A DNA stretch of 64,000 bases from an uncultured bacterium (GCA_963757755.1 CAVWTK010000003.1:295825-359824); one strand, 5' to 3'; shown: positions 3,253-21,743, counted from the stretch's first letter. Numbers and translations are program-made. The notes: generated by a model not told the origin, from the sequence alone.

Positions 3253-6200
3253 TCAGCTCCACCGCCGTCTCGCGACCGCGAGCAGCGCCGCGAGCGCACT
3301 GACGACCGCCCACGGCAGCATCGTCGGTGCGGGAGCTGGTCGGCCGACGACGGTCGAGCTGCCGCCGCCGCTGCCGCCGCCCGCGGCATCCCTGATGATC
3401 ACCGTGTTGGTGATCGTCAGCGATTGCGGGTGCGCGTCGACCGTGACGGCAAACAGCAGCGTGCCCATCCCGCCCGACGGGACGTTGGCAACGGCATGCG
3501 TGCACATCGTCCCCGCGGGGCCGCCGTCGAGGCAGGACCAGCCGGGAGTGCCGGCGGCGGCGTTGAAGGTCGTCGAGCCAGGCACCGTCTCCGTGACGAC
3601 GACGCCCGTGGCCGTGCTGCCGCCGGTGTTCGTGTAGGTGATCGTGTAGACCAGCGTGGCGCCGGCCTCGACGAACGGCTCGCTGGTCTTGGTGATCCCC
3701 AGCATCGCCGGTCCGGGCGTAGTGGTGGGTGTGCCCGACGCGGTCGCGGTCGGGGTCGAAGACGTCGTCGGTGTCGCGCTGGCGGTGAGCGTGGCCAACG
3801 GGGTGCTCGTTTCGGTGGTGGTCCGCGTCTGGGTGGCGGTGCCGGTCGCGGTGATGGTGGCCGTGGCGGTGGGGCTGACCAGCGGCGTCGCCGTCGCCGA
3901 CTCGGTCGGCGTCTGACTGGCCGTCGTCGACGGCGTCATGGTGGTTGTACCGGTGGGCGTCCGCGTCGCGGTTGCCGTCGCGCTGAACGTCGCCGTCGCC
4001 GTGACGGTATCGACCGGCGTCGCGGTGGCGGTGCCCGTGTTGACCGGCGTCGCCGTCGGCGTGGACATGAGCGTCGGCGTGAGCGTCGCGGTGTCCGACG
4101 GGGTGGTGGTCGCGGTGGCCGTGGCGGTAGCGGTATCGACCGGCGTGGCCGTGGGCGTGCCGGTGTGCGTCGGGGTGATGGTCGCGGTGGCCGTCGCCGT
4201 CGCGGTATCCACCGGCGTGGCGGTGGGTGTCTCGGTCCCGGTTGATGTAGCCGACGCGGTAGCCGTGGCCGTTGCGGTGAAGGTGGAGGTGGACGTCGCC
4301 GTACCGGTCGCCGTTGGCGTGTCCGTCGCAGTCGGTGTGGCGCTCGCCGTTTCGGTCGGTGTCGCGGTCGCCGTCGGCGTGCTCGTGTGAGTGGCGGTGA
4401 CAGTGTCGGTGGCGGTGCCAGTCGCCGTCGGGGTGACCGTGGCGGTACCGGTGTCGGTCGCCGTCGCCGACGGCGTGTGGGTGGCCGTCGCGGTCTGGGT
4501 GTCCTCTGGTGTCCGCGTGGGCGTGGCCGTCGCCGTGACGGTGGGCGTCTGGGTCACCGTGCCGGTCTGGGTCGCCGTGGCGGTCTGCGTGTTCTCGGGT
4601 GTGCGCGTGGAGGTGGCCGTCGCCGTGGTGCTGGGCGTCTGCGTCACCGTGCCGGTCTGGGTCACCGTGCCGGTTTGGGTCGCCGTGGCGGTCTGGGTGT
4701 TCTCCGGTGTGCGCGTGGACGTCGACGTCGCGGTGGTGCTGGGCGTCTGCGTCACCGTGCCGGTGCGGGTCGCCGTGGCGGTCTGCGTGTTCTCGGGTGT
4801 GCGCGTGGAGGTGGACGTCGCCGATGGTGCTGGGCGTCTGCGTCACCGTGCCGGTCTGGGTCACCGTGCCGGTTTGGGTCGCCGTGGCGGTCTGGGTGTT
4901 CTCGGGTGTGCGCGTGGACGTCGACGTCGCGGTGGTGCTGGGTGTCTGCGTCACCGTGCCGGTCTGGGTCGCCGTGGCGGTCTGGGTGTTCTCGGGTGTG
5001 CGCGTGGACGTCGACGTCGAGGTTGAGTTGGGCGTCTGCGTCACCGTACCGGTGCTGGTCGCCGTGGCGGTGCGCGTGGTCTCGGGCGTGCGCGTCGACG
5101 TCGCGGTGCCGGTGATCGTGATCGTGATGGTCGGAGTAGCGGTGCTGGTCGCCGTGCTGGAGCGCGTCGCGCTCGGCGTCGGGGTCGCGCCGCACAGGCA
5201 CGCGATGCTGCCGGCAAACTCCGGCTGATGTACCTCGCTGGTCGTCGTGAGCGCGCCGACGGCGACCGATCCTTCGATGGGGTTGCTGCCGCTGACCGTC
5301 GCATAGGGTGCGAGCATGGCGCCGTTGAAGTTATGGCTGCCGAGCGCGATCGACGTCGCCGAAGGGAAATTCCACAGCACGTGACTGCGCCACGTCGGAT
5401 CGGTGAACTGCGAGACCATGTTGCCGAACGTCCAGTTCACCGAGGTGCCGGTGACGTTGATGAGGATCGTCGACGCGCTGCCGGGGGCGAGCTCGATCTG
5501 CTGGACGAGCGTGTTCGCGAAGAGCGCGCCAGCGTCCACGGTGAAGACCGCGATGCCGCAGGCGTTGACCTGGCTGACGGTGAAGCGCGCCGGACCCGGT
5601 TGGCCGCTCGGCAACGTGACGGTGTTGTTGGGCGCGATCGCGGCGAGGTACGCCGTCGAGGCCTGGAGCGTCGCCGTCAGCGGGCCGTTGCTGAGCGTCG
5701 GATCGGCGACCGTCGACCCGCCACCGTTGTAGTTGATGATGCGGCCGTTGGTGGAGCCCTTGATGTGCAGGCTGCCGCCCTGAACGTTGATCGGATTGCC
5801 GGCGACGATGTTGCCCACGATCTCGACGGTCGTCTCGGCGGCCGGCACGCCGCCGAGGTGCGCGGCGAGGGTGGAGGAGTTGGCATTGGTGAAGTTGCCG
5901 CCGATGAACGAGCGGCCCTCGACGTCGGAGCTGGTCGAGTAGTCGCCGAGCGTGATCAGGTTGTAGTGCTGCATCGCCGTCGTCAGATCCTGCAGGACGG
6001 AAGCGCAGGGGGCGATGGTCGGCGTCGCCGTGGTGGTTGTCGTCGGCGTGCGCGTGGCGCCGCTGGTGACGGTCACCGTCGGGGTCGCGGTCGCCGTCCC
6101 GGTGCGGCTCGATGTGATGGTCGGTGTCGATGGACAGCCGGCGAGGGAGGTGGCGACGATGCGGACGAGCTCGTCGATCGTCACCTGGTGGTCGCGGTTC

Positions 6201-6385
6201 AGGTCGCCGGGACAACTGCCCTGCGGGCAGCCCTCGAGGGCGAGGTTGACGGCGCTGATGATCTCCTCGATCCGCACCTGACCGTCGCCGTTGAGGTCTC
6301 CGGGGCATTCATCGGCGCGTCCGAGCCCGGGGAGGGGGGCCAGCGCCAACAGCAGAGAGACCAGCAATACCCGCACAACAGCCAC
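3253..6385 (-). CDS. giant secreted surface protein: signal peptide, 2 dockerin-like modules, choice-of-anchor A domain, Thr/Ala/Pro tandem repeats, DUF11 repeat domain, IPTL/PEP-CTERM-like C-terminal anchor; one frameshift
   Basis: The N-terminal part is in ORF 3236..6385: [37 protein letters not shown], and [24 protein letters not shown] (choice-of-anchor A-like). The C-terminal part is in ORF 3253..4755: [28 protein letters not shown] (DUF11-like), ending [26 protein letters not shown]. The frames switch at about 4824 inside the repeats. The GTG start at 6385 is uncertain by a few codons. Confidence 0.8.
4501..5167 (-). repeat. in-gene tandem repeat, 90-bp unit with optional 18-bp sub-repeat ([21 protein letters not shown][GTVTQT]PSTTATSTS)
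   Basis: The GTTCTC landmark recurs at 4591, 4699, 4789, 4898 and 4988, with variants at 4501 and 5078. The spacings are 90, 108, 90, 109, 90 and 90. The 109-bp unit carries one extra A at about 4824 (GCCGATGG versus GCCGTGG in the sister unit), which is exactly the frameshift. Confidence 0.85.
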
Positions 6386-6431
6386 CCACCCTTGCGGTCA
6401 TCATTAAAGCAGTTCCCGATGCGTTGTCAGC

Positions 6432-20881: not shown

Positions 20882-21080
20882 GCGAGTCCTCTAGCGACTG
20901 CGGTGGCGGCGGGGAAGAAGGAACTCCCGCGCGAGGTGGCCAAGGGCATCTGCCTCGCGCCTTCCCGTCCTCGCGTTGAAAGTCTGGTGGGGCACAGCCC
21001 ATCGGCGGGACCGGCGGCGCGACAGCACCGCCCCGACATCGTGCGATGCCGGGGCGTTCGATTGCAGGGTCCGTGATCGA

Positions 21081-21743
21081 TCAGACGCCGCCGTGTACGG
21101 CCCGCGCGAAGAAGCTCCGAGCCTTACTGCCTTCGGCCGCATCTCCCCCGCTGAAGTCCCGGAGCCATGCGCTGGTCGTATCGCGGGCGAAGGACGTCGC
21201 CGACCAGTAGCCGTCGGCCTGCATGGGTCCGCTGGTGGGATCGAGGCACGGCCCGACCCCACCACCGCAGCTCCCCAGCGCCTGGTCCAGAATCCCAGTC
21301 ACCTCCTCGACCGTCGGCAGGCGCCAGTCGCAATGTCCGCTGAAGCAGCCGCTGGTCGCCACCCCATCCGGCGATGTCCCGCCGTTGAGCGCGAAGAGGA
21401 AGTCGGTGAACGCCGTGCCGTCGGGTGCGGTCCCGCTACGACTCCAAGCGTAGCGATTGTCCGCATCGTGCGGGTCGGACGGGTCGGCGTTGCCGTCCAG
21501 ATTGTCCTTCTTCTCCCAGACCAACCCCGTCTTGTTGTCGGTGACGGTCCCATCGCGATTGTCGGCGAAACGCGGCCCGTCGATCTCACACTCGTTCAGC
21601 GAGTTTTTGACGGCGACGATCAACTCGTCCACGGTCACTTTGAAGTCGCCGTTGAAGTCACCGAGGCACTGCGCCGCCGCTGGCATCGTGCTCGACGCCA
21701 TCGCCACGGCGAGGGCGGCGACCAGACTGATTCGCAGCATCAT
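21081..21743 (-). CDS. secreted DUF1566 (Lcl C-terminal, C-lectin-like fold) protein with one dockerin-like module
   Basis: The start is MMLRISLVAALAVAMA (ATG 21743, GGAGG 7 nt upstream). The module is QCLGDFNGDFKVTVDELIVAVKNSLNEC. DUF1566-like motifs are TGLVWEKK, WRLPTVEEV and GYWSATS. Confidence 0.75.
   Translation of the reverse strand: MMLRISLVAALAVAMASSTMPAAAQCLGDFNGDFKVTVDELIVAVKNSLNECEIDGPRFADNRDGTVTDNKTGLVWEKKDNLDGNADPSDPHDADNRYAWSRSGTAPDGTAFTDFLFALNGGTSPDGVATSGCFSGHCDWRLPTVEEVTGILDQALGSCGGGVGPCLDPTSGPMQADGYWSATSFARDTTSAWLRDFSGGDAAEGSKARSFFARAVHGGV

Follow-up and report, generated by a model that had tools for sequence, protein, structure and literature searches.

Cysteine-stapled dockerins on exported proteins of an uncultured, probably Binatia bacterium, and the cohesins that are likely to receive them

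The window that we have analysed is a stretch of 64,000 nucleotides (C3:295825-359824, with C denoting the contigs of the genome) from an uncultured bacterium, whose genome of 7.2 Mb, 70% GC, is assembled in nine contigs. Three genes on the minus strand of the window, which encode a surface protein, a pyrroloquinoline quinone (PQQ) dependent dehydrogenase and an Lcl_C (DUF1566) protein, carry copies of a small, cysteine-bracketed calcium-loop module that probably belongs to a cohesin-dockerin system. The original prediction, made from the sequence of the window, had described five such modules after the signal peptides of three unrelated exported proteins; all five quoted peptides have been matched exactly, each set being located directly 3' of the signal peptide of its gene. 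The genes and their modules are listed below, with the profile hidden Markov model abbreviated as HMM:

3253..6385, minus strand: surface protein gene (PF20597, E = 2e-43; TIGR04215, 7e-43; DUF11, 2e-10).
6134..6310, minus strand: two-repeat dockerin of the surface protein (halves 6227-6310 and 6134-6217; family HMM domain E-values 4e-10 and 8e-9).
4810..4832, minus strand: +1 frameshift in the Thr-rich repeat of the surface protein (seen by reading all three frames and by comparing the copies of the repeat).
16647..18197, minus strand: PQQ-dependent glucose/sorbosone dehydrogenase (GSDH-type) gene (PF07995, 7e-32; TIGR02232, 43.2 bits).
17964..18140, minus strand: two-repeat dockerin of the PQQ dehydrogenase, with the usual four cysteines (halves 18066-18140 and 17964-18041; HMM domain E-values 2e-10 and 3e-9).
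21081..21743, minus strand: Lcl_C (DUF1566) protein gene (PF07603, 9e-18; 376 homologues at E<=1e-20).
21588..21671, minus strand: single loop-helix module (half-dockerin) of the Lcl_C protein (HMM E-value 4e-8).

The surface protein consists of a signal peptide, the dockerin, a choice-of-anchor A domain, a long Thr-rich linker, DUF11 and a hydrophobic helix with an RRRWS tail; in the PQQ dehydrogenase, the signal peptide and the dockerin are followed by a Cys-rich repeat and the GSDH beta-propeller, and in the Lcl_C protein, the signal peptide is followed by one Cys-bracketed dockerin half and the Lcl_C domain. As had been proposed, the modules are portable tags that unrelated exported proteins have in common, and do not belong to the catalytic folds; the family profile matches the three proteins with E-values of 1e-21, 2e-19 and 4e-8. 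The unit of about 28 residues that had been described holds for the Lcl_C protein, which has a true single module, while in the surface protein and the PQQ dehydrogenase it is one half of a full domain of 61 residues, which consists of two repeats. The half-dockerin of the Lcl_C protein is kept in 25 orthologues, at identities down to 48%, with C26, G28, D29, V36, E40, V45 and C52 being invariant, and the homologues of the PQQ dehydrogenase are 75-87% identical, part of them being labelled "Candidatus Binatia bacterium". The dockerin of the surface protein is the sole copy of the genome with cysteines at positions 2, 28, 33 and 60, i.e. with a cysteine pair of its own bracketing each half. The surface protein gene is split into two frames by its frameshift, where one repeat copy has 40 bases and its sister copies have 39, either through an assembly indel or because the gene is a pseudogene. 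The C-terminal tail of the surface protein (window 3253-3340) has the layout of a sorting signal, i.e. a short motif, a helix and a basic end, with no Cys; none of the NCBIfam sorting-domain models matches it at E<=1. With an N-terminal dockerin and a sorting-like tail, the surface protein may be both anchored and docked.

An HMM from the five window modules was used to search the genome in six frames and was then iterated twice to convergence. The first HMM matches 174 reading frames at E<=1e-5, and the converged one 185-186 frames with 348 modules, arranged as a tandem pair in 162 of the 186 frames, as a single module in 23 and as four modules in one. The consensus of the full domain is xCxGDCNGDGxVxIxELxxGVNIALGxxxxxxCPAxDxxGDGxVxIxELIxAVxxALxGCx, with repeats of the calcium-binding, loop-helix form D-x-[ND]-G-D-G-x-V-x-I-x-E-L-I-x-x-V; in the 157 full copies, loop positions 1, 3, 5 and 12 are occupied by Asp (155), Asn or Asp (72 and 63), Asp or Asn (112 and 26) and Glu or Asp (141 and 15), respectively, and repeat 2 is alike. 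The cysteines are located exactly at positions 2, 6, 33 and 60 in 126 of these copies, and their number is even in 148, which points to disulfides; C2, C6, C33 and C60 most likely form two disulfide bonds. HMM statistics and the conservation in orthologues rule out chance or low complexity as the origin of the motif.

The genome-wide scan also bears out an enrichment on secreted proteins, with a signal peptide, by a crude test, upstream of the module in 152 of the ~186 carriers. The placement after the signal peptide, which had been stressed in the original prediction, is seen in all three proteins of the window, but is a minority arrangement across the genome: by the same crude test, ~61 frames have the module right after the signal peptide, ~100 have it at the extreme C-terminus, and 25 have it elsewhere. 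The stress on the N-terminal position and on the 28-residue unit is thus an effect of the sampling of one window. The N-terminal and the C-terminal copies are interleaved in the tree of the family (38 state changes, versus 40.6+-2.6 in shuffles).

The frames with one module are of mixed nature, including halves that are split by frameshifts, second halves with a Cys-rich loop, and true single Cys-bracketed modules. In one variant, the second calcium loop is swapped for a Cys-rich stretch of the form CP.(L/S)DCPQ....G..IDC, with the second helix and the final GC being retained; it occurs at the following places:

C4:33265-34767: dockerin variant with a Cys-rich second loop.
C1:422346-423632: the same variant.
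C4:510116-510475: the same variant.
C9:816152-818455: the same variant.

The Pfam model Dockerin_1 passes its cut-off at 34 places of the genome, of which eight are cysteine-stapled copies and 26 belong to two further dockerin classes that are missed by the HMM of the cysteine-stapled class. Class B, which is found on ~19 proteins (e.g. C9:2574419-2574553, C1:1183386-1183520 and C3:279485-279619), reads ..SALDAAWVLQAVAG...QRLACDVTGDGTLSALDATRILQ, while class C is N-terminal and is found on ~6 proteins (e.g. C9:1008510-1008656, C1:1430040-1430192 and C4:526245-526394), reading PGDANCDGTVD..DL...ADVNGD.RLTAPDLIAL. One class B copy shares its protein with a cohesin (C1:76104-78284) and another adjoins a cohesin (C7:445381-446619), which hints at separate cohesin-dockerin specificities.

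The proteins that carry the cysteine-stapled module are diverse. A Pfam scan of 172 dockerin proteins, in two sets of 86, leaves many without a family match; the recurrent families are beta-propellers of the NHL, SGL, lactonase and Vgb-lyase kinds, BNR/sortilin and cytochrome D1-like propellers, FG-GAP, beta-helix/NosD and Lcl_C, while the singletons include an alpha/beta hydrolase, PI-PLC, imelysin, subtilase, thaumatin, cytochrome P460 and GSDH. None of the 25 commonest Pfam families of either set is a glycoside hydrolase (GH) family and, therefore, the system is not a cellulosome.

The matches of the family profile among the sequences of the Protein Data Bank (PDB) are dominated by calmodulins, so that sequence alone cannot separate a dockerin from an EF-hand, and a comparison of folds was needed. 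The AlphaFold2 model of the PQQ-dehydrogenase dockerin, built from a 34-sequence alignment (pLDDT 96.3, pTM 0.80), shows a pair of loop-helix units that lack entering helices. In a Foldseek search of the PDB with this model, ranks 1-29 are all dockerins (4uyq_B, 2ccl_B, 6kg9, 1ohz_B), with TM-scores of 0.57-0.68 and probabilities up to 0.99, and EF-hand proteins occur only after them, with TM-scores of at most 0.42 and root-mean-square deviations of 7-15 A. By the predicted fold of this copy, the modules of the window are dockerins and not EF-hand pairs, in agreement with the dockerin-type calcium loop-helix that had been recognised in them.

The partner of the modules had been described as unknown for a genome of this kind; this no longer holds, as the same genome encodes ~44 cohesin modules, which co-occur with the dockerins in a sample of 61 genomes of the class. 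The Pfam cohesin model PF00963 lists 10 places at E<=1, five of which are over its cut-off (four alone, and one with its neighbouring matches), and an HMM that was seeded from the PF00963 places and iterated converges on approximately 35 frames with 44 modules. A PF00963 match at E<=0.01 is found in eight of 24 cohesin modules, and the profile of these 24 matches the PDB cohesins 5n5p (6e-9) and 6kgc (6e-8). The AlphaFold2 model of a cohesin (pLDDT 97.1, pTM 0.90) is all-beta, and its top 50 Foldseek matches are all cohesins, the best one being 6kgc_A, i.e. CohA2 of C. acetobutylicum (E = 2.3e-9, TM-score 0.76, 26% identity). The modelled structure confirms the predicted cohesin fold for the ~44 modules of the genome. 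No cohesin is located inside the window, the nearest one being at C3:208347-210208, ~86 kb upstream on the same contig.

The architectures of the cohesin proteins fall into three kinds. Eleven cohesin proteins are of an anchor type, whose C-terminus is made up of a Cys motif, a hydrophobic helix and a tail that is rich in Arg. A twelfth candidate, with two cohesins (C7:947008-948267), is frameshifted, and its intact orthologues of 405-410 residues end in ...DDDGCAVVAP...LLWLRRRS. Seven or eight proteins have a cohesin and a dockerin on one chain, with the dockerin preceding the cohesin within ~20 residues in three of them. The remaining cohesin proteins have cohesins only. In the paralogues C1:1134132-1137347, C9:976353-979367 and C1:1075547-1078522 (and C9:1329966-1331300), the signal peptide is followed by a dockerin, ~20 linker residues, a cohesin and ~700 uncharacterised residues up to the C-terminus; with plug and socket on a single polypeptide, they could form head-to-tail chains or cap themselves. 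Scaffoldin-like frames with 4-5 cohesins are found in relatives, whose genomes are denoted by G, at G020:C1:1357488-1360766 (2203 residues), G010:C9:170471-172723 (1750 residues) and G013:C14:114691-117321 (1009 residues), the last of which ends in a cysteine-stapled dockerin. In public databases, the homologues of the cohesin proteins are named "hypothetical protein" or "MYXO-CTERM domain-containing protein"; the only named match to a genome contig is a cohesin-like stretch in a metagenome-assembled genome (MAG) of Terriglobales (Acidobacteriota; L005, DASPMH010000548.1, 1609-1983), which is 32% identical to the two-cohesin protein.

The tails of the anchor-type cohesin proteins resemble the MYXO-CTERM sorting signal. 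The model of this signal, TIGR03901, passes its cut-off of 20 at 13 places of the genome with 20.2-30.7 bits (26-32 bits for the isolated tails), and eight of the 13 places are on cohesin frames (hypergeometric p = 4e-16, with ~6000 genes assumed), while none of 14 control genomes has a match. The genome also encodes a CPBP intramembrane protease (C4:664039-665379), whose four best NCBIfam matches, all below their cut-offs, are the myxosortase models MrtP, MrtC, MrtX and Mrt_core, and a GspD type II secretin in three frameshifted pieces. The homologue of the CPBP protease is single-copy in 8/8 genomes of the order, and four of these homologues are over the Mrt_core cut-off, with 101-111 bits. 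Homologues in relatives are located at the following places:

G024:C8:120125-120430: CPBP protease of a relative.
G020:C2:81239-81544: CPBP protease of a relative.
G018:C3:306000-306302: CPBP protease of a relative.
G021:C17:60610-60912: CPBP protease of a relative.

In M. xanthus, the MYXO-CTERM tail is cleaved by MrtX and the surface is reached by type II secretion (PMC11980579).

Dockerins and cohesins are distributed together among the relatives of the organism. All 31 relatives that were sampled from the same genus, family and order have both, with 10 to more than 150 dockerins (the scoring being capped at 150) and 5-40 cohesins, and the two numbers are correlated (Spearman rho 0.86). In the sample of 61 genomes of the class, both are found in the identical 10 genomes (Fisher p = 1e-11), of which eight belong to the order and two, with 1+1 and 2+2 copies, lie outside it; these two low-copy genomes are the only independent points of the co-distribution. 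Among 91 genomes of the phylum, the dockerin profile at 1e-8 matches only the genome itself and one other of the order, and among 1.84 billion cluster representatives it matches at least 8,395 clusters at E<=1e-10. The nearest named homologues are mostly from a "Candidatus Binatia bacterium" (up to 75% identity) or a "Deltaproteobacteria bacterium", with one from a "Dormibacteraeota" MAG. Going by the labels of its homologues, the organism is probably a member of Binatia, and outer-membrane machinery has been found in its genome.

Single-base frameshifts are frequent in the genome, e.g. at 4810-4832 in the surface protein, in the two-cohesin protein C7:947008-948267, in GspD (C9:1107348-1109454) and in a split dockerin (C4:752333-752831); in the window, the gene of a family III CoA-transferase (18484-21002) is read in three frames. 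They probably stem from indel errors in an assembly of long reads, they probably explain the estimated completeness of 68% of a nine-contig genome, and they render all counts of frames approximate.

The second motif of the original prediction, a Cys-rich repeat on two neighbouring proteins and on the PQQ dehydrogenase, is the Myxococcus-type cysteine-rich repeat that had been named there, although in the protease it is recognised by a genome-derived HMM only. The repeats and their further carriers are:

6520..8376, plus strand: secreted serine protease of the trypsin type, with one PPC domain and a pair of Cys-rich repeats, no dockerin (PF00089, 2e-15; PF04151, 7e-10).
7777-7857 and 7879-7959, plus strand: Cys-rich repeats of the protease (genome-derived HMM only, E-values 2e-5 and 3e-4).
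13980..16592, minus strand: large secreted protein with one Cys-rich repeat, no dockerin (PF13948, 36.9 bits; TIGR02232, 28.8 bits).
15663-15752, minus strand: Cys-rich repeat of this protein (TIGR02232, 28.8 bits versus cut-off 20.8; PF13948, 36.9 versus 27).
17826..17915, minus strand: Cys-rich acidic repeat of the PQQ dehydrogenase (TIGR02232, 43.2 bits versus cut-off 20.8).

The repeat shares its pattern, CG[ND]G..E..E.CD.....G.C...C, with the catalogued Myxococcus cysteine-rich acidic repeat (TIGR02232, PF13948 DUF4215), from which it has no notable difference. Across the genome, ~56 such repeats occur on ~40 proteins, only seven of which also have a dockerin; the repeat is an independent, catalogued element of unassigned function, and probably serves as a disulfide-rich spacer, outside the docking pair. 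The large secreted protein at 13980-16592 had been labelled "PHM-like", and this label is unsupported by Pfam and by PDB sequence searches, the latter of which give no match. Two probable lipoproteins adjoin the dockerin genes, at 8408-9295 (plus strand) and 9445-10644 (minus strand), one being a GDPD phosphodiesterase and the other beta-helix/NosD-like behind a Thr/Pro-rich stalk, so that the first 22 kb of the window form a cluster of exported proteins.

We consider it likely that the modules are lineage-specific, cysteine-stapled dockerins of a cohesin-dockerin display system, in which the dockerins would bind the cohesins. In the mechanism that we propose, the carriers would be exported by the Sec pathway through their signal peptides, oxidised in the periplasm, and released or displayed outside the cell, where the dockerin would plug, presumably in a calcium-dependent manner, into a cohesin module. 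By analogy with Myxococcus, the anchor tails may be lipidated, cut by the myxosortase-family CPBP protease and brought to the surface via type II secretion, and the proteins with both modules could serve as adaptors or link up into chains. Together, these parts would build a network for the surface display and assembly of ~180 exoproteins, i.e. beta-propellers, FG-GAP and beta-helix proteins, hydrolases, oxidoreductases and adhesin-like proteins, presumably located at the cell surface. The wider claim is that one Binatia order holds most of its exoproteome on a network that matches a cellulosome in size but not in purpose. In this network, the dockerins would exceed 200 and fall into three or more classes, the ~44 cohesins would make up three or more sequence groups, the outer-membrane lipid anchors would be processed by a myxosortase, and some dual-module proteins would form chains; this claim seems to us about evenly balanced between holding and failing.

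Several findings weigh against this interpretation. Concerning the dockerins, Pfam Dockerin_1 gives the window copies 14.4 and 16.0 bits (the latter for the surface protein) versus a cut-off of 22.9, and Pfam EF-hand_1 gives them 27.6 and 24.2 bits versus 25.4, with one copy passing; calmodulins are ranked first in the PDB sequence search, and the loop has a Glu at position 12, like EF-hands, where clostridial dockerins have Asp. Concerning the cohesins, no protein of the genome itself has more than two, and eight cohesin genes lie within 5 kb of dockerin genes versus 6.3 expected, which is not above chance, so that the gene neighbourhood has not been counted as evidence; the co-distribution also reflects, in part, shared ancestry in one order. 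Concerning the anchors, the CPBP protease of the genome scores 93.3 bits on Mrt_core (NF040914) versus a cut-off of 100, three genomes from a different family of the class have such a protease but no cohesins, and the curators of the models hold MYXO-CTERM to be confined to Myxococcota and Bradymonadales, with outside matches being false (10.1101/2023.06.07.544157). The Pfam EF-hand models, which equal or beat Dockerin_1 on the window copies, together with the calmodulins, the Glu and the lack of a neighbourhood link, would fit a reading in which the modules are self-contained relatives of EF-hands, calcium-binding and disulfide-locked, that stabilise or solubilise their carriers with no protein partner, while the cohesin-like domains serve otherwise. 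We consider this unlikely: the predicted fold is the loop-helix pair of dockerins and not the four-helix pair of EF-hands, the module shares its presence and absence with the cohesins throughout the 61 genomes sampled from the class, even at copy numbers of 1:1 and 2:2, its location at the far end of proteins, beyond Thr/Pro linkers, is like that of a docking tag, and seven or eight proteins join it with a cohesin.

That both halves are already present in one chain for ~87% of the carriers argues against another reading, in which dockerins would pair with each other or attach to a surface component other than a protein (polysaccharide, lipid), with half-modules of the Lcl_C type dimerising their carriers. 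A lone loop-helix of EF-hand proteins usually needs a partner half, and true single modules do exist here and are conserved, as this reading would have it; it leaves, however, the co-distribution with the cohesins unexplained, and truncated natural dockerins of Ruminococcus flavefaciens still bind cohesins, according to PMC12270676, so that we regard it as very unlikely. The least likely of the three, and in our view highly improbable, is that the modules are export or sorting signals, read by a secretion or sorting machine in the manner of PEP-CTERM, the T9SS CTD or MYXO-CTERM. Nearly all carriers seem to be secreted, the module is terminal in ~160 of the 186 frames, and the lineage does use C-terminal sorting signals, but one sequence type is found at either end of proteins and sometimes internally, unlike known terminal sorting signals; it is predicted to fold into a calcium-binding domain and lacks a membrane helix, and the MYXO-CTERM tails are mostly on carriers of cohesins, not of dockerins.

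Cohesin-dockerin pairs are the textbook means of extracellular enzyme assembly in bacteria and common parts in protein engineering, and what is understood of them comes almost entirely from Firmicutes that degrade cellulose. Here, an uncultured lineage that is globally common in soil and sediment seems to apply the plug-and-socket principle to ~180 diverse proteins, through a dockerin class that is barely seen by standard models (~8 of ~180 copies pass Pfam). If the pairs bind, they would provide a first handle on the cell-surface organisation of Binatia, and engineers would gain a large natural collection of docking pairs that are stabilised by disulfides and presumably tolerate oxidation. 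If the proposed system is real, it would exceed in size every known cohesin-dockerin system outside cellulosomes and would be the first with disulfide-stapled dockerins, and the range of myxosortase surface sorting would be widened by its first case outside Myxococcota and their neighbours.

Among the known systems with which the modules can be compared, EF-hands (PF00036 and relatives) share the 12-residue loop D-x-[ND]-x-D-G-x-[VI]-x-x-x-E that is followed by a helix, but the dockerins described here have no entering helix, and their predicted fold superposes poorly on EF-hand pairs. The MYXO-CTERM system of Myxococcus has in common with the present one the three-part tail (Cys motif, membrane helix, Arg-rich end), a CPBP protease that is nearest to myxosortases, and the type II secretin; the differences are that the present lineage belongs to neither Myxococcota nor Bradymonadales, that its protease does not reach the equivalog cut-offs, and that its cargo consists mainly of cohesin proteins.

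The likeness to the type I pairs of clostridia and ruminococci (PF00404/PF00963; 1ohz, 2ccl, 4uyq, 6kgc) extends to both partners: the dockerin is a two-fold calcium loop-helix domain of ~60 residues and the cohesin a beta-sandwich of ~140 residues, each with the same predicted fold; secreted dockerin proteins are many and cohesins fewer, the roles of anchor, adaptor and cargo can be read from the architectures, and relatives have scaffoldins with 4-5 cohesins. The differences are the four conserved cysteines, which, to our knowledge, are absent from classical dockerins, the Glu in place of Asp at loop position 12, the N-terminal location of a third of the copies, and the small share of copies (~8 of ~180) that Dockerin_1 detects. 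Unlike cellulosomes, the present system has no GH family among the 25 commonest cargo families of either set, its host is a high-GC organism with outer-membrane machinery instead of a Gram-positive anaerobe, and its anchoring is predicted to be by MYXO-CTERM instead of SLH domains or sortase.

Non-cellulosomal cohesin and dockerin-like modules have been described before (Peer et al. 2009, as cited in PMC9012536), with cases from ANME archaea (PMC9012536), the "planctosome" that was proposed for freshwater Planctomycetes (PMC6461901) and the cohesin 2xdh of Archaeoglobus fulgidus. A full-text search of the literature has found no paper that ties Binatia or Binatota to dockerins or cohesins, or dockerins to MYXO-CTERM. 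The present modules resemble the non-cellulosomal cases in that the hosts do not degrade cellulose, the functions of the carriers are varied, and an attachment to the cell surface is proposed; they differ in their number, with ~180-200 dockerins and ~44 cohesins per genome across an order, versus smaller numbers in the published cases consulted and a few components in the planctosome model, and in having a cysteine-stapled dockerin class and an anchor signal of the myxosortase type. The system thus appears to be a large, outer-membrane-anchored and apparently undescribed variant that is related to the known non-cellulosomal kind of cohesin-dockerin system.

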